In this document: positions 4,755 through 61,016 of the stretch, piece by piece | Position numbering within the stretch: the first letter of the stretch is position 1 | How the letters are laid out: every line of letters begins with the position of its first letter | Source: a bacterium | GTDB taxonomy: Bacteria > Patescibacteriota > Minisyncoccia > JAHIHE01 > JAGLIN01 | Direction of reading: 5' to 3' | Length of the DNA stretch: 64,000 bases | Assembly (NCBI GenBank): GCA_030638825.1 | Contig: DAOWDU010000011.1 | Location: 5,675-69,674 of the forward strand | Translations under genes and position numbers: made by a program | The notes under the pieces: generated by a model | Told to the model about the DNA's origin: nothing | The model's input: the letters and a program-made list of their open reading frames with translations, nothing else | Database searches by the model: none

Positions 4755-5609
4755 TTATCGTTTATTCAATCTCTTCAAAATCTCCAAATCTTCCTCAGCT
4801 TTCCCGCCTGGTGTTTCCAAAATAAAATCCAAATTCTTTAATCTTGGCTCATTAATAATCATCTCAAATCCTTCTATTCCAATTTTGCCTTTACCAATAT
4901 TTTCATGTCGATCAATATGCGAATTGAAATCAGATTTTGAATCGTTGCAGTGAATAAGTTTTAATCTTTCCAGTCCAATTATTTTATCAAAATCATCAAA
5001 GGTTTTCTGGACCGCTTTTTTATCGCGTAAATCATAACCTGAAGCGAAAGCGTGAGCGGTGTCAAAGCACACACCTAATTTAATATTTTTGTCATCCTGA
5101 GCTTGTCGAGGGACTTCCTTAATAAAATAGGCGATTTCTTCAAAACTGTCGCCCATAATATTTCCAGAGCCAGCGGTGATTTCCAGCAGTAGGGAACAGG
5201 CATGCCTGTTCCCTACTGCTACTAACCCTTTAATTAATTTCTCCCGCGCTTCTTTTTCGCCTAGTTCTTTCGCGCTTCCTAGGTGAGTAACAACCGCTTT
5301 TGCGCCGAGTAAATCCGCTGTTTCTAGTTCTTTCTTAATTGCTGAAATTGAACCGTAATAAATTCTATTATTCGCCGAAGCGAGATTTATATAATATGGC
5401 GTATGAATGTAATAATTTTCTAAATTATATTTCTGGCAATTTTTTTTAAAATTATTTATAGCGCTCTCTGTAATTTCTTTCGCTTTTCCTCCTTGCGGAG
5501 ATCTGGAAAACATCTGAAAACACTCACAGCCAATCTCGTGAGCTCTTTCGGGAGTTTTTTCAATTTCCCCCGCGATTGAAATGTGCGCGCCAAAGTTCAT
5601 TAGTGACAA
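4755..5609 (-). CDS. nfo: Endonuclease IV (AP endonuclease family 2)
   Basis: Conserved Nfo blocks are present (HAPY-like IHTPYYINLAS, TAGSG, CFDTAHAFASGYD, LIHCNDS). The gene also contains two in-frame repeat insertions, described in the findings. Confidence 0.85.
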   Translation of the reverse strand: MSLMNFGAHISIAGEIEKTPERAHEIGCECFQMFSRSPQGGKAKEITESAINNFKKNCQKYNLENYYIHTPYYINLASANNRIYYGSISAIKKELETADLLGAKAVVTHLGSAKELGEKEAREKLIKGLVAVGNRHACSLLLEITAGSGNIMGDSFEEIAYFIKEVPRQAQDDKNIKLGVCFDTAHAFASGYDLRDKKAVQKTFDDFDKIIGLERLKLIHCNDSKSDFNSHIDRHENIGKGKIGIEGFEMIINEPRLKNLDFILETPGGKAEEDLEILKRLNKR

Positions 5610-6139: not shown

Positions 6140-6194
6140 AAAAAGTTTGGTTAGCTGATCTAAAATTAGCTAAATTTCCCATCCTTCGACAAGC

Positions 6195-7190
6195 TCAGGA
6201 TGACAGTGTTGTTGTATTTTTTAAAATCATCTCTCTAATTCTTCTTACGCTATTTTCTACATCTTCCCCTTCCATTTCAAACCCAGAGGCAAGTTTATGC
6301 CCTCCTCCGCCTAAGCTCCTTGCTATTTCAGACACATCAATTCCTTTATAATCCTCGCTTCTTAAACTTCCTTTTATTTTTTTGTTCTCGCTCTCTGTTA
6401 GAAGCAGGGAAAATTTTGCATCGCTAACTGTATTAATAATACTAATCAAGCCAGACGCGTCTTCTTCTTTCGCGCCGCATTCTTCTATATCATTTTTACT
6501 AATATAAGATATTGCCATTTTTGTATTTTTATCTGTTTGAATTCTACTAAGCGCTTTCCCCCACAGTTTTATCGCGGGTACATTTTTCCCATTGAAAATA
6601 TTTTTCGCGATTTTATCTATGCGGGATCCTTTTCTCATCAGTTCTGCCGCAGTTTCAAGAGATTGCGGATCTGTGTTACTGTGTTGAAAGCCTCCTGTGT
6701 CTGTAAAAATTCCTGTGAGCAGACAATCAGAAATGTTCTTTGTGATTTTTATTCTCATTTCTTTTAGAAGATTGTAAATCAAAATTGCTGCAGAAGAAGC
6801 TTTATCGTCTATGATTAATATACAATCTTGTTCTGTTTTATTTTTTGGATGATGGTCAATGATTAATAAATTATTATGAGAAGAGGCAATCTCTCTTATG
6901 TCGTCTACGCCAGTTCTTGAAAAAAAAGCGCAGTCCAATAATACAACAAGATCGTAATGCTTTGGATCTATTTGATTTTTAATCTTTGAGACGCCAGGCA
7001 AGAATTTAAACACTTCGGGAATTTCGCTTTTAGAAAAACATTCTACATTTTTATTATCCAAACAACTAAGCGCGTGAGCCAATCCTAAAACAGATCCTAC
7101 CGCATCTCCGTCTGGATTTTTGTGGGTGAGGATTAAAATATTATCGCTGGATTTTATTAAATTTATTGCTTGTTGCATGGTATTAATCAT
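6195..7190 (-). CDS. DHH-family phosphoesterase (NrnA-like oligoribonuclease / pAp phosphatase)
   Basis: DHH motifs DGDAVGS and DHHPKN, and the DHHA1 GGGGH motif. The last codons and the stop come from a GTCAT-type hairpin element (see finding). Confidence 0.8.
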   Translation of the reverse strand: MINTMQQAINLIKSSDNILILTHKNPDGDAVGSVLGLAHALSCLDNKNVECFSKSEIPEVFKFLPGVSKIKNQIDPKHYDLVVLLDCAFFSRTGVDDIREIASSHNNLLIIDHHPKNKTEQDCILIIDDKASSAAILIYNLLKEMRIKITKNISDCLLTGIFTDTGGFQHSNTDPQSLETAAELMRKGSRIDKIAKNIFNGKNVPAIKLWGKALSRIQTDKNTKMAISYISKNDIEECGAKEEDASGLISIINTVSDAKFSLLLTESENKKIKGSLRSEDYKGIDVSEIARSLGGGGHKLASGFEMEGEDVENSVRRIREMILKNTTTLSS

Positions 7191-7351: not shown

Positions 7352-7690
7352 TCACAATCTATTCTCTTCAATAATTCTACCAATTTTCTCCACATCCTCC
7401 CCGCTCCGATCAATCACAAATCTAATTCTCGGCAAGGGCTTCATAAATAATTTCCGATTAAGTTTCCCCTGAATAAAATAAATATTTTCTTTTAGTTCCT
7501 TCTCAATTTTAACGCTCATCTCATCTGGCAGAACGCTTATAAAAATATCCGCGTAACGGAGATCTGCGGATGTTTTCACTTTGGTTATTGTCAGAATAAT
7601 ATTTTTTGAAAAATCAACATCAGTCAGGATTATTTTTCCAAGCTCTTGCTTGATTAGCTTGTTTATTTTTAGGATTCTTTGGGTTGACAT
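7352..7690 (-). CDS. rbfA: Ribosome-binding factor A
   Basis: 112 aa. The N-terminal block KINKLIKQELGKIIL is RbfA-like, and the gene lies immediately downstream of infB (conserved infB-rbfA arrangement). Confidence 0.75.
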   Translation of the reverse strand: MSTQRILKINKLIKQELGKIILTDVDFSKNIILTITKVKTSADLRYADIFISVLPDEMSVKIEKELKENIYFIQGKLNRKLFMKPLPRIRFVIDRSGEDVEKIGRIIEENRL

Positions 7691-11562: not shown

Positions 11563-13659
<2,097 letters not shown>

Positions 13660-13700
13660 CTATCATAGCCTCTTTTCTACGGCCGTGAGAAAGAGGCTAT
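13660..13700 (-). terminator. GC-rich hairpin (catagcctcttttctacggccgtgagaaagaggctatg). An identical stem sequence is re-used at 14293-14333.
   Basis: Stem-loop followed by T-rich sequence on the minus strand, immediately after the stop of the 13703-14233 gene. It is a near-identical direct repeat of the hairpin at 14293-14333. Confidence 0.55.
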
Positions 13701-13702
13701 GG

Positions 13703-14233
13703 TTATATTTCTATTTCTTCTATTAAAAATAATTTTATATAAGAGTCAACGGAATACTTTCTTAAGATGAGTTCAGTTTCTTTTTGGACGCTATAGGGAC
13801 AAATCCAGATACTTTGCTGAAGCATTTTATATTCTAAGAGACGAAGTTTTTCTCGCAACAAATCTCGCAGGTGTCTTTTTTCTTCGGGAATGTCAAAAAT
13901 TATCATCTGCCATTTCCCGTCTGGTCTTTTTTGTTTATTTTTTATTTTAAGTTTTGCTTTTAAAACTTTTTCAGCTCCTTTTTTTGTTAGAATAATTCCT
14001 TCATTTTGCTCCAGATTTTTAATCTTAATATAACCATTCTTTTTCAGACGATAAATTAATTGTCTAAATTGTCCCTTTGTCTGTTTTCTTTTATATTGAT
14101 CTTTCAATTCACGGAGAGATGGATAGCAATATTCTTTCATTTTTCTATACGAAAAAATAGTAAAAGTTTTATCTAACTTTTCAGCGTGATTATAAACATC
14201 TAATAAAAATTTATCAGTAATTGGCAGTTTCAT
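13703..14233 (-). CDS. Winged-helix DNA-binding domain fused to a Cas2-like (VapD / PaaX C-terminal fold) domain. Orphan: no cas1 or CRISPR array nearby.
   Basis: The C-terminal block MIIFDIPEEKRHLRDLLREKLRLLEYKMLQQSIWICPY matches the Cas2 pattern (YDI..R.R..L...G.R.Q.SVFEC). The N-terminus has a wHTH pattern. Confidence 0.5.
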   Translation of the reverse strand: MKLPITDKFLLDVYNHAEKLDKTFTIFSYRKMKEYCYPSLRELKDQYKRKQTKGQFRQLIYRLKKNGYIKIKNLEQNEGIILTKKGAEKVLKAKLKIKNKQKRPDGKWQMIIFDIPEEKRHLRDLLREKLRLLEYKMLQQSIWICPYSVQKETELILRKYSVDSYIKLFLIEEIEI

Positions 14234-14292
14234 GGAGCTTATTGAGTTTTAATATTTATCTAATTTTATTATACACTAATTCACGATATAGT

Positions 14293-14333
14293 CATAGCCT
14301 CTTTTCTACGGCCGTAGAAAAGAGGCTATGATT
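14293..14333 (-). terminator. GC-rich hairpin, second copy of the 13660-13700 hairpin, downstream of pilD
   Basis: catagcctcttttctacggccgtagaaaagaggctatg. Confidence 0.5.
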
Positions 14334-14398
14334 ATATTGCTACAGCTACATTTATCGTTCTGTACTATTCTGTATTTAGATGTGGTAAGTATGACAAT

Positions 14399-18136: not shown

Positions 18137-18523
18137 TTACATGCTTTTCTTTAATACTTCTCTGATTTTTTCAATAACTTCTGACGGTGTAAAATGAGCC
18201 TTGATTATATAACTGTCAGCCCCTAAATCAAATCCTTTTTCTACATTTTCTTTCTGCCCCAAATTTGTTAAAAGCACGACAGGGATTCCTTTTAGCTCTA
18301 TGTTTTTTTTAATTATTTTCAAAACATCAAAGCCGTCCATTTTTGGCATAACAACATCCAAAAGAATTATATCTGGTTTTTGTTTTTCTAGCATCTTAAT
18401 GCCTATTATTCCATCCTTTGCAGTCGCAACTTCAAAGTTTTCTGATTCTAGTTTAATCTTATACATGTCAGATATGTAAGAATCATCTTCTATTATTAAA
18501 ACCGATGTTTTGTCTTTGATCAT
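18137..18523 (-). CDS. Single-domain response regulator (CheY-like receiver)
   Basis: Receiver residues DD...D (IIEDDSY, LLDVVMP), T/S and K. Confidence 0.85.
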   Translation of the reverse strand: MIKDKTSVLIIEDDSYISDMYKIKLESENFEVATAKDGIIGIKMLEKQKPDIILLDVVMPKMDGFDVLKIIKKNIELKGIPVVLLTNLGQKENVEKGFDLGADSYIIKAHFTPSEVIEKIREVLKKSM

Positions 18524-18524
18524 A

Positions 18525-18599
18525 TTGTTAAATTGTTAAATTGTTAAATTGTTAAATTGTTATGCGTGGCATAGCAATATTTTTATGCCATGCATAACA
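18525..18599. repeat. Octamer tandem repeat (attgttaa) x about 5, then a 15-bp inverted repeat (gttatgcgtggcata / tatgccatgcataac). It lies directly upstream of the response-regulator ATG.
   Basis: The tandem array spans 18525-18563, and the inverted repeat spans 18559-18573 / 18585-18599. The 21-mer atgcataacaatttaacaat recurs at 45370-45395. Confidence 0.7.
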
Positions 18600-18623
18600 A
18601 TTTAACAATGTAGCAATTTAATT

Positions 18624-20384
18624 TTATTCTTCCGTAACTCTCAAGACTTCCTCTATGGTTGTTAGTCCAGATAGAACTTTCATTATTCCATCTTGCTTCA
18701 TTGTCACCATTCCCTGTCTTTCCGCTTCTTTTGATATTTCAGCGTCTGAAATATTAGAAGACATTATGGATTCCAATTCGGGAGTCATTAAAAGAACTTC
18801 ATAAACTCCTATTCTTCCAGAAAATCCAGACTGTTTACATTCTTTGCATCCTTCTCCGTGAAAGAGTTTGAGACCTTTTTTTATATTAAAATCACTTTTC
18901 TGATCGTCGGGAACATTTTCAAGCTCTTTTCTGATAATTTTTTCCATAGAAAGTGAAGCTGGCATTTCTTTTTTGCAGTGGGAGCATATTTTTTTAACTA
19001 AGCGTTGCGCTATTGCTATATTTAAGGAGGACGATATTAAAAACGGTTCAACTCCCATATCAATCAAACGCGGGATAACGCCAATCGCGTTATTAGTGTG
19101 CAGCGTTGATAAAACCAAGTGTCCTGTTAGGGCGGCATGGGTCGCTAATTCGGCTGTTTCTTTGTCTCTTATTTCTCCAACCATTATAATATCTGGATCT
19201 TGCCGCAATATTGATCTTAATCCCGAAGAGAAGGTGTATCCTATTTCTGATCGTATTTGACTTTGATTTATTCCAACCATAAAATATTCTACAGGATCCT
19301 CCAAGGTCACAACATTTACTCCTTCCTTATTTAGTATTTTCATCATCGCGTAGAGAGTTGTTGATTTTCCGGAGCCTGTTGGTCCCGTCACAAGAACAAT
19401 TCCGAATGGCTTGCTTATATTGTCGTTGATTATTCGCAATCCATTTTTCCAAATGCCTAAGTTTTCCAGGGTGCTAATATTTGAAGATGTGTCTAAGATT
19501 CTCATTACCACTTTTTCTCCGTTGACGGTTGGAAAAGTAGAAACACGCAAATCAACACTTTTGCCTAAATTGCCCTCCTTAGAAAGAGTGAAACGAAATC
19601 TTCCATCTTGCGGTTTTCTGGTTTCATCTATTTTTAAATTGGCAAGTATTTTTATTCGAGAAGTGATCGCGGGAGTAATTTTTTTGGGGAGAACTAAGCT
19701 GTTGTGTAAAGTTCCGTCTAATCTATATCTAACTCTCAGTTCATTTTCATTTGGCTCAATGTGGATGTCGCTTGCTCTTCCTTCTACAGCGTGAGTAAGG
19801 ACAATATTTACAATCTTGCTTACGGGAGCTTCTCCAGTAATTCTTTCTATTTTTCTGCTTCCTGTTTCCTTTTTTAGATTTTGCTCCTTGCTAATAATTT
19901 GCTGGTCAACATTTTTTAGAACATTTTCTAATTCATCGTCTACTTTTTTATACTGTTTTACAGCGTCATAAAAATCGCTCCTAGACACCAAATATATTTT
20001 TGTGTTAGTCTTGTGCCTTATGGAAATAAATTTTAAGGCATCTAACGCTTCTGTATTATTCGGATCAAGCATAGCGACATTAACTGTTCCGTCATTTTCT
20101 CCAAATGGTATAAATTTATAAAACAACGCTGCTTTTTCTGGAATCTTTTTTAAAATTTCACTATCAATAATTTCATCTTTCAGTTTGATATAAGGGACCC
20201 CCAAAAAAGCTGCTTTAACTTTCGTCAGCTCTCTTTCGTCAGCCGTTTTTTTATCAATCAAAATGTCAAAAATATCCAAATTATCCTTCTTTGATTTTTC
20301 AAGCGCGTCATCAATTGTATGCTTATCAACTACATTGCTGGAAAGCAAGTAGTCGTAAGCTCTCTCAAGGTTTTTACTATTCAT
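18624..20384 (-). CDS. pilB: Type IV pilus assembly ATPase PilB (GspE family)
   Basis: N-terminal GSPII_E_N domain, Walker A LVTGPTGSGKSTTLYA, and a C-terminal Zn motif CSHC...CKEC. Confidence 0.9.
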   Translation of the reverse strand: MNSKNLERAYDYLLSSNVVDKHTIDDALEKSKKDNLDIFDILIDKKTADERELTKVKAAFLGVPYIKLKDEIIDSEILKKIPEKAALFYKFIPFGENDGTVNVAMLDPNNTEALDALKFISIRHKTNTKIYLVSRSDFYDAVKQYKKVDDELENVLKNVDQQIISKEQNLKKETGSRKIERITGEAPVSKIVNIVLTHAVEGRASDIHIEPNENELRVRYRLDGTLHNSLVLPKKITPAITSRIKILANLKIDETRKPQDGRFRFTLSKEGNLGKSVDLRVSTFPTVNGEKVVMRILDTSSNISTLENLGIWKNGLRIINDNISKPFGIVLVTGPTGSGKSTTLYAMMKILNKEGVNVVTLEDPVEYFMVGINQSQIRSEIGYTFSSGLRSILRQDPDIIMVGEIRDKETAELATHAALTGHLVLSTLHTNNAIGVIPRLIDMGVEPFLISSSLNIAIAQRLVKKICSHCKKEMPASLSMEKIIRKELENVPDDQKSDFNIKKGLKLFHGEGCKECKQSGFSGRIGVYEVLLMTPELESIMSSNISDAEISKEAERQGMVTMKQDGIMKVLSGLTTIEEVLRVTEE

Positions 20385-22164: not shown

Positions 22165-25100
22165 TTACAACAAGGACTTTATTTTTTCTTTCAGTTTTTT
22201 TATTTTTTTTTCGCTTTCCATAAATTTTTCTCTTTCTTTTTCAACAATTTCCCGCGGAGCATTGCCGACAAAATCATCATTGCCAAGTTTTGTTTTTATC
22301 TGGAAAATATATTTTTCTATATTTTCTATTTTTTTTTCTAAATTCTTTTTTTCTTTTTCTTTGTCAATTATTCCCTCTAAATAAATTTCAATATCGCCAA
22401 CAACTAAATAAACCGCGTCTTTGATTTTATCGTCCTTTTCTTTTATTTCTAATTTATCAATTCCAGTTCTGAGATTTTTGATTAAATGCGCTTGTGATTT
22501 GATAAATTCTTTTTTATTTCCAGCGTAAATTACAGCTTCAATTTTTTTACCTGGCTCAACCTTATATTCCGCGCGCGCGTTGCGAATGGCTTTAATAATA
22601 TTTTGAATTATTTCAAAATCGCGGGCTGTTGTGATTGTAGGGAACGGGCATGCCTGTTCCCTACAATCACGGTCAGCCCACTTTTCCACCATCAGTAAAT
22701 TTTCACTGTCTAAATTCTTCCAAATTTCTTCTGTCACAAACGGAATAAAAGGGTGAAATAAAATTAAAACTTGTTTTAAAATATAATTTAAAATCTCATT
22801 TTTATTTTTTTCAATTTTAGAAATTTCAATATACCAGTCAGCGAAATCGTTCCAGGTAAATTCTTTTATTTTTTCGCCAGCTTGCGAAAATTTATAATTA
22901 TTCAAATCATCTGTGACTTCTTTAGTTAAATTGTTTAGATTATTTAAGATCCATTTATCTGCTAATGTGGCATCAGAAGCTGGGCTTCCAATTGGAAGCC
23001 CAGCTTCTTTAGTATTATCAATATTCATAATAATATACCGTGAAACATTCCACAACTTATTCACAAAATTCCGATACCCTTCAACTTTTTCTTCATACAT
23101 CTTAATGTCATTTCCTGGACTGGATCCGATAATCATACTCAATCTCAAAGCGTCCGTTCCGTATTTCTCGATCATCTCGATCGGATCAATCCCATTTCCA
23201 AGAGACTTGCTCATTTTCTTTCCCTGCTTATCTCGTACCATTCCATGCAAATAAACATTTTCAAACGGGACTTCGCCAAGCGTATAAGTCGTCATCAAAA
23301 TCATTCTTGCCACCCAAAAAAACAAAATATCATAACCCGTTTCCATCACGCTTGTTGGATGAAACTTTTTCAAATCTGGACTATTCGCAACCCAATCTTC
23401 AAAAGTTTTATATTTCTCGTGATCCTGATTTAATAAAGTTGAAAATGTCCAAAGACCTGAGGAGAACCAGGTGTCTAGAGTGTCGGTGTCCTGTGTCCAG
23501 TTTTTTCCTTCTGGTGGATTAGTCCCAATATATATTTCTTGATTTTTATATTTCTTACCTTTCGGTATCATAGTATATACTATGGAACTATTATCAAATT
23601 TATTATTTAATTCATATTTCCATCCCGCTTGCCACTCTTTTGTTTTTCTCCAATCTTCATTAATCGCTTGCTCCCAAGTTCTATTTTTTAAAATTACATC
23701 TAGCGCTAACTGTGGAGCTTTGTGCGCAACAATAGCAATTTTTTTACCTTGATATTTATCTATTAAATCATTAAGAAAATCCCTGATTCTTTTTTCAACA
23801 TCTTTATAGCTCTCGCCCTTTGGAAATGGTTTGTCTATTACATTTTTTTCTATCACCAAAATTTCAGACGCACCAGCTTGTGTTAAATCTCCATAATCAC
23901 ACTCACGCAATCTTTCATCCTGAATGATTTTTACACCTCTATCACTAAACGTTAGGCTTGCAGAATCAACTGCTCGTTTCAAATCTGAACAAAATACAAT
24001 ATCAAATTTCTCATTTTCAATTGTTTTCTTTAAATCTTTTGACTGCTGAATTCCTAATTTTGATAATTTTACATCATAATGACCAGACGCTTTATTCTTC
24101 TCATTATCAATCGTCGTCCCATGAACAAAATAAGTAATATCAATTCCTGATTCCTGATTCCTGATTCCTGATTCATTTTTATACCAAACCGGAATCCGAT
24201 GCCCAAACCATAACTGACGGGAAATACACCAATCATGCAAATTTTCCATCCAATTATGATATGTTTTTTCAAATCTTTCAGGAATGATTTCAATTTTCTT
24301 GTCATTTTTTTCATCAGCTTTATTCACCACTTCCAAAGCAATTTCCTTCAAGGACTTATTTTGAAAATATTTATTTCCTCCAATTGTAATTTTCTTGTCA
24401 ACGGCGACAAACCATTGTTTTGATGGCAAAGGTTCAATCGGGGTATCACAGCGGTAGCAAATGCTTAAACTTTGATCTACTTCTTCAACTTTTTCAATTA
24501 AATTATTTTTCTCAAAATACTGGACTATTTTTTCTCGCGCTTCTAAAACTGTTAGTCCTTCATAATCTTTTCCTGCGTTCTCATTCATCTTCCCGTCTTC
24601 GCCAATAATTTTTATTTTCTCCAAATCATTTTTCTCTGCCATTTCCCAGTCAGTCATACTGTGCGCGGGAGTTACTCCTAATGCCCCAGTTCCAAACTTT
24701 ATTTCAACTTCTCTATCTGAAATAATTTTAATTTTATGTTTGCCATTTCCTAAATTTATTTCAAAAACTTTGCCAATATACTTTTTATATCTCTCATCTT
24801 TTGGATTAACAGCAACCGCTGTATCGCCTAACTTTGTTTCTGGTCTTGTTGTCGCGATTGTGATTGGAAAGTCTTTGTCATATTTAAAATAATACAGTTT
24901 CCCTTTTTGCTCTTCGTGTTCAACTTCATCATCCGCTAAAGTTGATTCGCATCTTGGGCACCAGTTGACAATTCTGTCTCCTCTATATATTAATTTATCA
25001 TTGAACATTTTTGTAAATACTTCCCTCACTGCGCGTGATAATCCATCATCAAGTGTGTATCTTTCCCTTGACCAATCGCAAGAAGAACCCATTTTTCTGG

Positions 25101-25512
25101 TTTGATTTTTAATTGTACTTTTTGAATTTTCTACATATTCATTTACTCGCTCCAGAAATTTCTCTCTGCCTAAATCATATTTCGTCTTCCCCTCTTTTGC
25201 GATTATCTTTTCTACTTTCGTCTGTGTCGCGATTGAAGCGTGGTCTGTTCCAGGAAGCCATAAAGTATTTTTTCCTTTCATTCTATTATACCTAATCATC
25301 AAATCCTGATAAGCAAGCATTGAAGCATGTCCTAAATGCAAAACTCCCGTCGCATTCGGCGGCGGCATTGAGATTGAAAAGTTTTGTAGGGAACAGGTAT
25401 GCCTGTTCCCTACAAAACTATTCGGATTAAAAAAACCAGACTTTTCCCAAGTCTTATAAATTTTATCTTCCACCTCTTGAGGATCATATGCTTTTGGAAT
25501 TTCTTTTTTCAT
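22165..25512 (-). CDS. valS: Valyl-tRNA synthetase with inserted domains
   Basis: HIGH (PNATGVLHLGHA), KMSKS and the anticodon-binding/coiled-coil C-terminus. 1115 aa, longer than typical ValRS because of insertions. Confidence 0.95.
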   Translation of the reverse strand: MKKEIPKAYDPQEVEDKIYKTWEKSGFFNPNSFVGNRHTCSLQNFSISMPPPNATGVLHLGHASMLAYQDLMIRYNRMKGKNTLWLPGTDHASIATQTKVEKIIAKEGKTKYDLGREKFLERVNEYVENSKSTIKNQTRKMGSSCDWSRERYTLDDGLSRAVREVFTKMFNDKLIYRGDRIVNWCPRCESTLADDEVEHEEQKGKLYYFKYDKDFPITIATTRPETKLGDTAVAVNPKDERYKKYIGKVFEINLGNGKHKIKIISDREVEIKFGTGALGVTPAHSMTDWEMAEKNDLEKIKIIGEDGKMNENAGKDYEGLTVLEAREKIVQYFEKNNLIEKVEEVDQSLSICYRCDTPIEPLPSKQWFVAVDKKITIGGNKYFQNKSLKEIALEVVNKADEKNDKKIEIIPERFEKTYHNWMENLHDWCISRQLWFGHRIPVWYKNESGIRNQESGIDITYFVHGTTIDNEKNKASGHYDVKLSKLGIQQSKDLKKTIENEKFDIVFCSDLKRAVDSASLTFSDRGVKIIQDERLRECDYGDLTQAGASEILVIEKNVIDKPFPKGESYKDVEKRIRDFLNDLIDKYQGKKIAIVAHKAPQLALDVILKNRTWEQAINEDWRKTKEWQAGWKYELNNKFDNSSIVYTMIPKGKKYKNQEIYIGTNPPEGKNWTQDTDTLDTWFSSGLWTFSTLLNQDHEKYKTFEDWVANSPDLKKFHPTSVMETGYDILFFWVARMILMTTYTLGEVPFENVYLHGMVRDKQGKKMSKSLGNGIDPIEMIEKYGTDALRLSMIIGSSPGNDIKMYEEKVEGYRNFVNKLWNVSRYIIMNIDNTKEAGLPIGSPASDATLADKWILNNLNNLTKEVTDDLNNYKFSQAGEKIKEFTWNDFADWYIEISKIEKNKNEILNYILKQVLILFHPFIPFVTEEIWKNLDSENLLMVEKWADRDCREQACPFPTITTARDFEIIQNIIKAIRNARAEYKVEPGKKIEAVIYAGNKKEFIKSQAHLIKNLRTGIDKLEIKEKDDKIKDAVYLVVGDIEIYLEGIIDKEKEKKNLEKKIENIEKYIFQIKTKLGNDDFVGNAPREIVEKEREKFMESEKKIKKLKEKIKSLL
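22631..22670. repeat. Family-A palindrome (gtgattGTAGGGAACgGGCATGCCTGTTCCCTACaatcac), in frame in valS
   Basis: 40-bp palindrome with one central mismatch. It encodes ...ACPFPTITT... in valS. Confidence 0.8.
22975..23008. repeat. Family-B palindrome (aGAAGCTGGGCTTCCAATTGGAAGCCCAGCTTCt), in frame in valS
   Basis: Perfect 34-bp palindrome. It encodes EAGLPIGSPAS. Confidence 0.8.
24143..24175. repeat. Heptamer tandem repeat (attcctg) x4 inside valS
   Basis: Encodes ESGIRNQESGI at the start of the ValRS insertion. Confidence 0.8.
25380..25419. repeat. Family-A palindrome (agttttGTAGGGAACAGGtATGCCTGTTCCCTACaaaact), in frame near the valS N-terminus
   Basis: It encodes the VGNRHTCSLQ insertion between the conserved N-terminal segment and the HIGH region. 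Confidence 0.8.
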
Positions 25513-47195: not shown

Positions 47196-47339
47196 AATTC
47201 ATTTCTTACGCCGCTTAAAACAAATAAATAATAAGCCGAATTTTGTTTTCTGATATAAAATCAAAATGATAATCATCTATCTAGCCATACTATTGCTAGT
47301 ATGATCAAGCGAGCTACTTTTTTCCCAACTAACTTACAA

Positions 47340-47693
47340 CTTACAACTTACAATTTTAATATTGTTATTTGTTATGAGTTATAGGTTATAAGTTAGTCAG
47401 GATTTGCTCTTGCACCAGGCAGGGTTTACCATCATTTGCTGTCACCAGCAAGGAAAGAGCGTAGATTTAAATTTATAAAAATTCAAATCATCGCCCAACT
47501 TTTCACCTTTTATCATGTATAACATGATTAGTATAGTCTCTGTGGCACTTTCCCTATCCTAAAAAAATTAGAACGGTTGCCGTTAGCAACTGCCTGCTTC
47601 CAGGTTATTTTAAAGTAATCTGGGGTGTTCGGACTTTCCTCTCCTATTCTTTAAAAGAACAAAAGCGATTATCTAATTTACCATTTTAAGCTC
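47340..47693 (-). ncRNA. rnpB: RNase P RNA (bacterial type), ends approximate
   Basis: The non-coding region is GC-richer than its surroundings. The minus strand carries GAGGAAAGUCCGAAC (P4 5' strand), GGGAAAGUGCCACAGAGA, AAGGUGAAAAG, GGUAAACCCUGCCUGG and GCAAGAGCAAAU in canonical order. An extended -10 TGTATAAT lies at 47700-47707 (minus strand). Confidence 0.6.
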
Positions 47694-49827: not shown

Positions 49828-50688
49828 ATGTTTTCTAAAACCGAAATTAAAAAATTACTTGAAGAAAAAGATTTGAAAGTTCTGAAAAGGTTAGGACAGA
49901 ATTTTTTGATTGATGAAAAAGTTTTAAATGAAATAATTAGAGCGTCGGAACTTAATAAAGATGATTTTATTTTGGAAATTGGTCCAGGTTTGGGAACGCT
50001 TACCGATGAACTTGTTAAAAAATGTGGAACAGTTGTGGCGATAGAGAAAGATAAAAAAATGGCAGAGTTGATTTTTAAAGAAGCTGAGCTTCCTATAGGA
50101 AGCTCAGCTTCTCGCGCTTTTTTAAAAATCATCAACGATGATATTTTAAAAATAAATTTAAACAAGCTTATTGAAGAATATTCTAAAAACAAAAAATATA
50201 AATTGATTTCTAATATTCCATATTACATCACTTCGCCTGTGATAAAATTATTTTTAGAAAATAGCATCCAGCCGGAGCTGATTGTTTTGCTTGTTCAAAA
50301 AGAAGTAGCGGAAAGGATCTGCGCGAAGCCGGGAAAATTAAGTATTTTAGCTTTGAGCGTCCAAATATACGGCGAGCCGGAGATTGTTAGCTATGTTGAT
50401 AAAGCCGCGTTTTATCCCGAGCCAAAAGTTGATTCGGCGATTTTAAAAATCAAAAACATTAAAAAAGAATTCTCTGAAGAGTATTACAAAAAACTTTTCA
50501 AAATTATAAAAATCGGGTTTTCGTCTAAAAGAAAAAAGCTGGCAAATAATTTATCAGCTGGATTGTATCTTACCAAAAAAGAAAGTGAAGATATTTTGCA
50601 ACAATCAAACATAAATCTAAACACTCGCGCGCAGGAATTGAGTTTGGAGGAGTGGGATAAATTAGTAAAATTGACGCTGTTGAAATAA
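49828..50688 (+). CDS. rsmA: 16S rRNA (adenine1518/1519-N6)-dimethyltransferase
   Basis: LGQNFLIDEKVLNEII and LEIGPGLGTLT SAM-binding motifs. Confidence 0.9.
   Translation: MFSKTEIKKLLEEKDLKVLKRLGQNFLIDEKVLNEIIRASELNKDDFILEIGPGLGTLTDELVKKCGTVVAIEKDKKMAELIFKEAELPIGSSASRAFLKIINDDILKINLNKLIEEYSKNKKYKLISNIPYYITSPVIKLFLENSIQPELIVLLVQKEVAERICAKPGKLSILALSVQIYGEPEIVSYVDKAAFYPEPKVDSAILKIKNIKKEFSEEYYKKLFKIIKIGFSSKRKKLANNLSAGLYLTKKESEDILQQSNINLNTRAQELSLEEWDKLVKLTLLK
50079..50112. repeat. Family-B palindrome (aGAAGCTGAGCTTCCTATAGGAAGCTCAGCTTCt), in frame in rsmA
   Basis: Perfect 34-bp palindrome. It encodes EAELPIGSSAS. It differs from the valS copy by compensated changes (G to A paired with C to T, AATT versus TATA centre). 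Confidence 0.8.
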
Positions 50689-60011: not shown

Positions 60012-61016
60012 TTACTTTTTACTGTGAAACTTCTTGTGAATATTTTTCAAATGCTTGTCTGTGATGTGCGTGTAAATTTGAGTTGTCGTGATACTGGAAT
60101 GGCCGAGCATTGACTGGACGCTTCTAATGTCAGCGCCGTTCATTAGTAAATCTGTCGCAAAACTGTGCCGCAAAGTATGGGGCGTCACTTTTTTTACGAT
60201 GCCCGCTTTGACGGCATATTTTTCTACTATTCTTTGAATAGTTCTTACTGTCAGTCGTAAAGATTGATTTGCTTTTGCTTTATTTTTCTTACTGTTTTTT
60301 TTGCTTTTATTTTCATTATTGCAATAGCCACCGCCTTTTTTTCTAAAATTTATAAATAACGCAGGGTCAATATCTTTCCTTTTTTTAAGATAATCTATTA
60401 TGGCATCTTTTGCTGAGTCGGAAATAAAAACAAGACGGATTTTTCCTCCCTTTCCCCTTATAGAAAACTCGCCGCTTTTGAGATTTATGTTTTCCCTGTT
60501 TAAATTAGCAAGTTCCGAGACGCGAAGTCCAGTGGAAAATAGCAATTCTAAAATCGCTTTATCGCGCAGGCGATGGAAATATTGAAGGCGACATTCCGGA
60601 ATGTCGCCTTCAATATTTCCATCGCCTGTTTTCACAGATTCTAATAATCTTTTTATCTCATCCGCTTCTAAAAATTCTACTTCTCGCTCTTGCGTTTTTC
60701 CAAGCTCCACTTTTTCACTTGCCAATGTTTCAATATCTTGTTTTGCTAAATATTTCAAAAAACCGCGCAAGGCGATTATATAATAATCCTGTGTTGCTTT
60801 TTTTAAATTTTTTTCTTTACGATCTTTATATCTATTGAGATATAACCTGAATTTCTTTACCAATTCACCTGTAATATCCTCTGGATTTCTGATCATTGCC
60901 CAATCTAAAAACCGATTTAAATAATGATCGTAGTTTCTAATTGTCAGCTGTGATCTATTTTTCTCAATCTCCAAATATTCAAGAAATTCAATTTTTAATT
61001 CTTTTATTTTTTCCAT
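60012..61016 (-). CDS. Tyrosine recombinase (XerC/XerD / phage-integrase family) with a Lys/Asn-rich insertion
   Basis: The C-terminal catalytic block HTLRHSFATDLLMNGADIRSVQSMLGHSSITTTQIYTH (R...HxxR...Y). XerD-like N-terminal core-binding domain. Confidence 0.8.
   Translation of the reverse strand: MEKIKELKIEFLEYLEIEKNRSQLTIRNYDHYLNRFLDWAMIRNPEDITGELVKKFRLYLNRYKDRKEKNLKKATQDYYIIALRGFLKYLAKQDIETLASEKVELGKTQEREVEFLEADEIKRLLESVKTGDGNIEGDIPECRLQYFHRLRDKAILELLFSTGLRVSELANLNRENINLKSGEFSIRGKGGKIRLVFISDSAKDAIIDYLKKRKDIDPALFINFRKKGGGYCNNENKSKKNSKKNKAKANQSLRLTVRTIQRIVEKYAVKAGIVKKVTPHTLRHSFATDLLMNGADIRSVQSMLGHSSITTTQIYTHITDKHLKNIHKKFHSKK

Follow-up and report, generated by a model that had tools for sequence, protein, structure and literature searches.

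A dispersed hairpin repeat of Patescibacteria, read in frame within proteins and paired by covarying arms

Two essential genes in a 64-kb stretch of contig DAOWDU010000011.1 (hereafter the window, meaning all 64,000 nucleotides analysed), from a metagenome-assembled genome (MAG) of Candidatus Pacebacteria, each carry a perfect 34-bp palindrome that is translated as part of the protein. One lies in valS, encoding valyl-tRNA synthetase (ValRS), and the other in rsmA/ksgA, whose product, RsmA, is present identically in GCA_023138945.1. The two palindromes are nearly the same, and where their stems differ the difference is compensated, which raises the question of whether the pairing itself is preserved and, if so, by what. 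A first-pass annotation of the window had taken the two copies as direct evidence that a hairpin or cruciform is under selection, or is regenerated by a hairpin-templated mechanism. We show here that they belong to a dispersed repeat family, termed family B, in which complementarity between the arms matters, and weigh the explanations for its maintenance. The relevant features of the window are as follows.

11563-13635, minus strand: ligA (NAD-dependent DNA ligase), host of a decayed copy
12864-12895, translated on the minus strand in the K-L-S frame: decayed third family-B copy in ligA, GAAACTGAGCGTCC-CGTT-GGACACTCAGCTTT
22165-25512, minus strand: valS, host gene, 1115 aa
22975-23008, translated on the minus strand in ValRS: family-B palindrome, GG:CC variant, centre AATT, predicted to fold with a 15-bp stem
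49828-50688, plus strand: rsmA/ksgA, host gene, 286 aa
50079-50112, translated on the plus strand in RsmA: family-B palindrome, GA:TC variant, centre TATA, inserted here and adding about 12 codons to what close relatives have

Two translated palindromes and their repeat family

The valS palindrome reads AGAAGCTGGGCTTCC-AATT-GGAAGCCCAGCTTCT and that of rsmA AGAAGCTGAGCTTCC-TATA-GGAAGCTCAGCTTCT. Both are perfect, with 17-nt arms and zero spacer; the first-pass annotation gave their coordinates correctly but spelled out only the inner 32 nt, to which one extra A:T pair must be added to make 34. The frame relative to the palindrome is identical in the two genes, and translation yields the expected peptides EAGLPIGSPAS in ValRS (in context, KEAGLPIGSPASD) and EAELPIGSSAS in RsmA (KEAELPIGSSASR). 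Apart from the centres, each of which is indeed palindromic, a single stem pair differs: G:C in valS is A:T in rsmA, the G/A difference of the left arm being matched by C/T in the right.

Chance can be excluded as the origin of these palindromes, because the arms are over-represented, palindromes are in excess and the folds are strong. The 14-mer arm occurs eight times in the window (at most two mismatches) against 0.36 expected, and nine perfect palindromes with arms of at least 11 nt compare with 0-1 in shuffled sequence. For RNA the predicted folding energies are about -30 (valS) and -27 (rsmA) kcal/mol (z-scores of about -6 to -7.6), and for DNA about -18 and -17. A sequence-only covariance model retrieved the ligA copy, in which 11 Watson-Crick pairs and one G.T remain of 14 positions, bringing the family-B copies in the window to three. 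This copy and a ligA copy at another locus (L022) were considered as orthologues and rejected as such, since they occupy different sites. An assembly artefact was likewise rejected in view of independent assemblies, in-frame copies and conserved sites.

The distribution of the element was determined by scanning 185,579 species genomes (one per species). The pattern held most of both arms constant, while two stem positions per arm (N7N8) and, in one arm, the four outermost bases were unconstrained. The scan returned 96 loci, comprising 77 two-armed copies and about twenty single-strand chance matches in unrelated bacteria. Five of these chance matches, orthologous loci of Lachnospiraceae type (four labelled Lachnospiraceae, one Acetatifactor), provide a negative control, in which the free positions vary without compensation. 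The 77 copies lie in MAGs labelled, as given, Giovannoni-, Moran-, Falkow-, Uhr-, Zambryski-, Yanofsky-, Niyogi- and Nealsonbacteria, Paceibacterota, Parcubacteria, 'Saccharibacteria' and Patescibacteria; a few of these MAGs bear the labels Gammaproteobacteria, Bdellovibrionales or Nanoarchaeota, likewise as given. At least nine full copies are spread over eight contigs of one MAG, with three to five in several others; a genome may hold several variants, and one genome (L062) has identical variants at two of its loci. Family B is a dispersed short hairpin repeat of Patescibacteria.

The element measures 32-36 bp, with a stem of 15-17 bp that mostly continues 1-2 bp into the flanks. Its arms are separated by 2-6 nt, the loop being 4 nt in 62 of the 77 copies, 5 nt in 11 and of other length in four. 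Each arm is itself a mini-palindrome, GGAAGC-NNN-GCTTCC, making the whole element an inverted pair of a 13-15-nt unit. Single units also occur alone and as nested arrays inside open reading frames (ORFs) of one MAG, where they are read as EAKLP or (G)SLAS, but doublets predominate.

Searches beyond the species genomes added little. A metagenome scan with the core only (GCTTCCAATTGGAAGC) gave 120 matches, four of them family B and the rest mostly unrelated terminator-like hairpins and chance matches. Many low-GC metagenome contigs, including L108, L110, L135, L139, L166, L172, L183, L197, L208 and L223, carry a core GCTTCC-AATT-GGAAGC flanked by A- and T-runs (AAAAAAG…CTTTTTT), like bidirectional terminators. 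Viral contigs gave two chance-like single-strand matches with 6-nt gaps, and no sign of a phage vector. At the gathering score Rfam reports no family at the valS or rsmA site, only generic hairpins far below threshold. The searched literature, which leaves most subscription journals outside it, holds no description of family B, or of REPIN or RAYT in the candidate phyla radiation (CPR), and exact-sequence matches in it were limited to two unrelated papers, one in virology and one on a fluorescent protein. Family B thus appears to be undescribed, while in-frame palindromic repeats as a kind are already known.

Most copies (67 of 77, or 87%) lie inside ORFs of at least 100 aa. Among the 51 of these with a four-nucleotide loop, 48 share one main frame, GAA-GCT-NNG-CTT-CCN-NNN-GGA-AGC-NNA-GCT-TC, and intragenic copies translate as [E/D]-A-x-L-P-x-G-S-x-A-S. 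By our derivation, for each loop length third codon positions pair with one another in no frame but the preferred one, and 57 of the 67 intragenic copies comply. The third positions of the element are fixed across genomes of about 33-54% GC. Variants that create a stop (TA and CA, giving TAG or TGA in the main frame) are confined to other frames or to sequence outside ORFs, so the element must be read through and not removed; a spliced mini-intron was rejected for the same reason. Intergenic copies stand 17-80 nt downstream of stop codons. The hosts are mainly large housekeeping enzymes, namely UvrB, UvrC, AddA-like helicases, LigA, FtsK, ArgRS and LeuRS, along with NadE, a Mur ligase, LepA, ComEC, TsaD and some surface proteins. 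Domain architecture is complete despite the element in ValRS, RsmA, TsaD, LigA, UvrB, UvrC, ArgRS, LeuRS, FtsK and others.

Sequence comparison shows that the rsmA copy was inserted and adds about 12 codons: among RsmA relatives at about 80% identity, some have an empty site (…LIKEK-NLKIIN…), and in others the loop is occupied by a different palindrome (…PKATFANVAFG…). The loop location anticipated for both copies is borne out for RsmA, where the insert falls in a surface loop predicted to be disordered. In the AlphaFold (AF2) model of RsmA, with a mean predicted local distance difference test score (pLDDT) of 89, the element is predicted to occupy residues 85-95, comprising the end of helix 76-87 and the loop before strand 99-103, and residues 89-93 score below 50. 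Alignments to solved structures of KsgA and ValRS are gapped in the references at both sites. The RsmA loop is an insertion hotspot: in many close relatives it holds an unrelated palindrome with 17-23-bp arms, AAACCAAAGGCGACATT-AGCC-AATGTCGCCTTTGGTTT, which encodes the PKATFANVAFG peptide (L105 3289-3338; proteins P0122-P0147), and more distant relatives have other loop peptides (VETQHCCVST, PPDKGGLGGV) for which a palindrome origin is only a guess.

In valS the element occupies a hypervariable loop where the anticodon-binding domain begins, immediately ahead of the LADKW motif. It is missing from the closest ValRS relative (75% identity), and in other lineages the same loop holds other palindrome-derived peptides. 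Elsewhere in the same protein, residues 464-601 (23710-24123) form a complete histidine-phosphatase domain (PF00300) within the catalytic domain; related CPR ValRS proteins either carry different inserted domains (PF06821 serine hydrolase, PF02567 PhzF) or lack any. Native E-A-K-L codons of TsaD coincide with the left arm there, and in both RsmA and ValRS the element comes after a K-E pair; in RsmA this pair is native, as is seen from the empty-site relatives. These coincidences hint at junction microhomology during insertion.

Covariation and persistence of pairing

The two window copies are not by themselves proof of independent maintenance, because the valS and rsmA insertions are paralogous and may have inherited their compensated difference from two symmetric source variants; the GA variant seen in rsmA recurs in nine copies elsewhere. 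In this respect the first-pass reading went too far. Its broader claims, that the hairpin is either selected or regenerated and that more than coding sequence is preserved, do hold, and are supported by covariation across the family, by the fixed third positions and by orthologous copies in TsaD.

Across the family, the free stem positions are complementary in 75 of 77 copies, in eight dinucleotide types (AA, CG, GA, TA, TC, CA, TG and GG). An alignment of the 57 distinct copies with four-nucleotide loops shows double-sided changes at ten pairs and a covariation score of 0.233, against 0.096 after shuffling (0 of 500 shuffles reach the observed value) and at most 0.084 with slid partners. The flanking pair, which the search pattern did not constrain, is A:T in 31 of these copies, G:C in 19, G.T in two and unpaired in five. 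Bystander copies, found outside the pattern selection, are perfectly paired in six cases of seven, the seventh having one mismatch, and three variants in L062 have changes at pairs 3, 5 and 6 with perfect pairing. Uncompensated mismatches do not accumulate at the rate of neutral sites. The data require that complementarity between the arms matters, and it is this base pairing, not the encoded peptide, that is conserved.

TsaD provides the orthologous series in which pairing can be followed in place. Among the 120 TsaD homologues listed, 16 have the element at a single junction (…LKEA|xLPxGSxAS|KLD…), in six codon-pair states that are all complementary except for one K/F. Over all 23 element-bearing proteins found, codons 2 and 10 are complementary and of three types, the K/F exception belonging to the TsaD set. 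The proteins of L088 and L089 are 68% identical and share only 39% of third positions outside the element, whereas 13 of 14 third positions are identical over the element and the next three codons. At N7N8 the CG:CG of one copy is replaced by AA:TT in the second, so that two of the 15 pairs differ. The L228 copy (GACGTCCGACGTCC-ACTT-GGACGTCGGACGTC) has five changed pairs, all compensated, and remains paired at 15 of 15 positions. In L230 the left arm has decayed, and the right unit and its flanks make a perfect 14-bp hairpin. TsaD copies therefore persist, paired in place, while the surrounding synonymous sites are saturated, which points to selection or correction in place.

The ValRS series is less decisive. 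Six of the 120 ValRS homologues listed have the element at the same site as the window, and at the DNA level, seen for four of them, compensated pairs stand beside uncompensated intermediates. In a neighbour-joining tree the four of the six that it includes, along with the window ValRS, are spread over four clades, which allows recurrent insertion at a hot loop, and the site was consequently dropped as proof of compensation in place; the in-place argument rests on TsaD. The sister pair L100 and L102 resembles drift, with one pair made, one broken and one wobble.

What maintains the hairpin

Our favoured explanation, to which we assign a probability of roughly 0.55, is that family B is a REP/REPIN-like hairpin repeat (that is, resembling repetitive extragenic palindromes and their hairpin-forming doublets) whose pairing is maintained and which is tolerated in frame within protein loops. 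The unit would be (G)GAAGC-NNN-GCTTC(C), two of which, inverted around a four-nucleotide centre, would form the 15-17-bp stem. Copies would arise through insertion, some just downstream of genes and most within them, and those surviving within genes would be the ones that keep the reading frame and occupy permissive surface loops. We infer that the hairpin, in single-stranded DNA or RNA, is the functional form, recognised by whatever copies or maintains the element and probably through a conserved trans-acting factor, and that asymmetric variants would then be lost or re-symmetrised. The likeness to REP/REPIN follows from the unit and doublet structure, the several variants per genome, the identical variants at two loci, the gain and loss among close relatives and the copies at gene ends.

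Several observations weigh against this explanation. No target-site duplication is visible, and the exact boundaries of the rsmA insertion are beyond reach as the empty-site relatives are too diverged. No transposase or partner gene was found; the Pfam annotation, which covers part of the window and so a fraction of one genome, lacks RAYT. The GTAG and CGTC tags of the known REP super-families are absent from the 38-nt family-B consensus, nnAGAAGCTAAGCTTCCAATTGGAAGCTTAGCTTCTnA; another family of the window, TGTAGGGAACAGGCA|TGCCTGTTCCCTACA, does have GTAG. The taxonomic labels of the MAGs are taken as given. Old orthologous copies in TsaD stay paired, although a purely selfish repeat gives no obvious reason for this, and the four-nucleotide centres are palindromic in 28 of 62 copies (45%) against 8.5% expected, which hairpin stability does not explain. 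Finally, every change at pairs 4 and 10 is a C-to-T change in one of the four symmetry-equivalent GC*TTC sites, where a context-dependent mutation hotspot could mimic compensation; this caveat has no bearing on the transversion-type changes at N7N8 or in L228. Four independent copies (L099, L102, L072 1743-1778 and the window copy at 12864-12895) share a change of GGAAGC into GGAAAC (read from the opposite strand, C-to-T within GCTTCC), and this recurrence suggests a mutation hotspot within the element, possibly a methylated cytosine.

A more ambitious proposal, which we regard as tentative, is that family B represents a new ultra-short, stem-only class of hairpin found across Patescibacteria, which would enter genes by microhomology or template switching, with no cut-and-paste transposase involved, and be actively kept symmetric over the long term in essential genes. 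Symmetry would be kept by a conserved factor recognising hairpins or cruciforms, or by self-templating repair. If this is true, such hairpins are a resident structural feature of CPR coding sequences and not decaying junk.

It is rather unlikely, in our estimate, that the element is a host-beneficial cis-acting hairpin kept by ordinary purifying selection in each gene, where it might slow the ribosome between folding units, affect mRNA stability, or serve as a processing site or as a structure-specific DNA binding site. The TsaD orthologues fit such a role, as they stay paired and vary far less at their third positions than nearby synonymous sites do; stems evolve more slowly than neutral sites, and the preferred frame, by matching third positions with third positions, keeps the conflict of coding with pairing to a minimum. 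However, close relatives manage without the element in all three of ValRS, RsmA and TsaD, and in other lineages the same loops hold different, unrelated palindromes. The orientation of the loop (ACTT or AAGT) is unbiased relative to the coding strand, and the rare mismatches show A.C on the sense strand with the same frequency as G.U. Both window copies fit a lenient terminator-like pattern on the plus strand, but lie mid-gene, and although a T-run starts 6 nt past the rsmA stem, T-runs are not a consistent feature of family-B flanks.

Regeneration of symmetry by a purely mechanical process, without selection, is improbable as the whole account. Here a mismatch in the hairpin would be repaired from the other arm, or a template switch would copy one arm, so that a mutation is either reverted or doubled. 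Correction of quasipalindromes by template switching is an established mutational mechanism. It suits the near-perfection of the copies, diverged ones included, and the palindromic centres fit copying through the axis better than they fit hairpin stability. The window genes also contain unique perfect palindromes, such as the 62-bp example at 60567-60628, that are unmatched in a small sample, about 1.5 Mb, of related and unrelated loci. Against this, neutral correction predicts change at about the neutral rate, yet only two of 15 pairs differ between the synonymously saturated TsaD copies of L088 and L089. It also leaves unexplained why distant lineages share the same consensus, and decayed copies with one to three uncorrected mismatches exist. 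The slow turnover of pairs speaks for selection; the palindromic centres, together with the unique perfect palindromes found elsewhere in the window, speak for a templated process.

We give little credence to the idea that family B is a double-stranded DNA site read by a dimeric or tetrameric protein through GAAGC/GCTTC half-sites. The nearest analogy would be parS, a palindrome located inside genes and conserved across phyla. The element does contain four such half-sites in alternating orientation, all of which have changed together in L101 and L228; the consensus is kept across lineages of differing GC content, and the centre is often palindromic. But the near-invariable complementarity of the central stem positions, over all eight dinucleotides, is needed for base pairing and not by a protein reading sequence, arm variants that are not self-complementary (L062, L229) are still complementary between arms, and copies are gained and lost among close relatives. 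A DNA-uptake sequence was rejected, its density being too low and the covariation left unexplained.

The remaining possibility, that selection acts on the peptide [E/D]AxLPxGSxAS as a protein motif and the symmetry of the DNA is incidental, draws on its recurrence in many proteins and the loose similarity of LPxGS to sorting motifs, and is effectively refuted by the fixed third-position codon usage across genomes of differing GC content, the reading of the same DNA in other frames (GSxAS..EAxLP and KLSF) and the copies outside ORFs; in addition, the two variable residues change only as complementary codon pairs (K/L, E/S, R/R, G/P and W/Q), and the proteins carrying the element are enzymes of the cytoplasm.

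A large part of bacterial diversity is accounted for by Patescibacteria, whose proteins are known for odd insertions. Part of this oddity in CPR proteins can be traced to short hairpin repeats landing in frame in surface loops. Such repeats create spurious peptide motifs (EAKLPIGSLAS and similar), inflate the apparent divergence of proteins and can mislead the alignment, annotation and phylogeny of CPR marker genes. A shared, covarying element of 32-36 bp implies a conserved process or factor acting on DNA or RNA hairpins, and the orthologous series in TsaD and ValRS offer a natural experiment in the co-evolution of nucleic-acid structure and coding frame, with wobble positions pairing with wobble positions.

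Other palindromes and comparison with known systems

The window is rich in other palindromes, none of whose families gave informative matches among the fetched loci. A second in-frame family, (T)GTAGGGAACAGGCA|TGCCTGTTCCCTAC(A), bears the GTAG tag known from classical REPs. Its copies, at 5185-5220, 22631-22670 and 25376-25423, lie one in a gene of the AP-endonuclease-2 family (VAVGNRHACSLLL) and two in valS (RDCREQACPFPTIT and FVGNRHTCSLQNF), and these insertions are not present in homologues. The 62-bp palindrome at 60567-60628 is perfect and without spacer, and is read as TGDGNIEGDIPECRLQYFHRL in a tyrosine recombinase (phage-integrase family) gene. Three in-frame palindromes with 26-36-nt arms, 94-100% complementary, lie on the minus strand at 232-287, 575-646 and 918-948 in one beta-helix surface protein, whose gene extends past the window start.

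Between genes, copies of ATAGCCTCTTTTCTACGG|CCGTAGAAAAGAGGCTAT at 13655-13710 and 14286-14337 flank the ORF at 13703-14233; in these GTAG adjoins the axis, and the copies are 96% and 75% complementary. Tandem repeats of TTAAATTG at 18519-18622 form a 43-nt inverted repeat (88% complementary) immediately upstream of the minus-strand gene for a type II/IV secretion ATPase (18624-20384). The RNase P RNA (class A) match at 47216-47684 is 469 nt long against a 367-position model, and the gene probably carries insertions. Outside the window, a 'Saccharibacteria'-labelled MAG (L026) has four long perfect palindromes of 46-74 bp and of other sequence within 8 kb (438-502, 2577-2622, 6140-6213 and 7469-7530); such elements can be dense in some CPR genomes.

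Among known systems, some intergenic family-B copies could act as intrinsic terminators. [quoted passage not shown] Family B differs in having no internal segment or target-site duplication, its flanks extending the palindrome and forming no direct repeats, and its covariation implies pairing, not the binding of a transposase to two independent ends.

Rickettsia palindromic elements (RPEs), reportedly described by Ogata and colleagues in 2000, are said to lie in frame in functional, often essential genes, with RPE-1 about 100-150 bp long and the elements decaying after insertion. Family B is similarly translated, in functional genes and at tolerated positions of the protein, and likewise belongs to a host-dependent bacterium with a reduced genome. 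It is set apart by its length of 32-36 bp and by its host, which is of another taxon, and its copies at orthologous sites stay paired through compensated changes.

Coding palindromes of up to 284 bp, both arms of which encode conserved amino-acid regions, are reported for the mitochondria of Nematomorpha (PMC6649704). These too are perfect inverted repeats within coding sequence, translated and symmetric despite coding constraint; family B differs as a short repeat inserted in a loop and in belonging to another genetic system.

The closest resemblance is to REP and REPIN. Family B, at 32-36 bp against 20-40 bp for REPs, is likewise hairpin-forming, multi-copy and dispersed; it has a unit and an inverted doublet that folds into a longer hairpin, and its gene-end copies stand close behind stop codons, as REPs do. 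REP and REPIN are linked to RAYT tyrosine (Y1) transposases. Family B differs from them in lacking the GTAG or CGTC tag, in its perfect arms (those of REPs are imperfect) and in its predominantly intragenic location, as REPs are mainly extragenic, with a small intragenic minority. A single family-B consensus also extends over many lineages, whereas REP and REPIN are specific to species or genus. Because it lacks the tag and is mostly intragenic, we call family B REP/REPIN-like and not a member of that group. Intragenic, in-frame REPs have nevertheless been documented in repair genes and aminoacyl-tRNA synthetases (PMC3733652), and the host genes of family B are of the same kinds.

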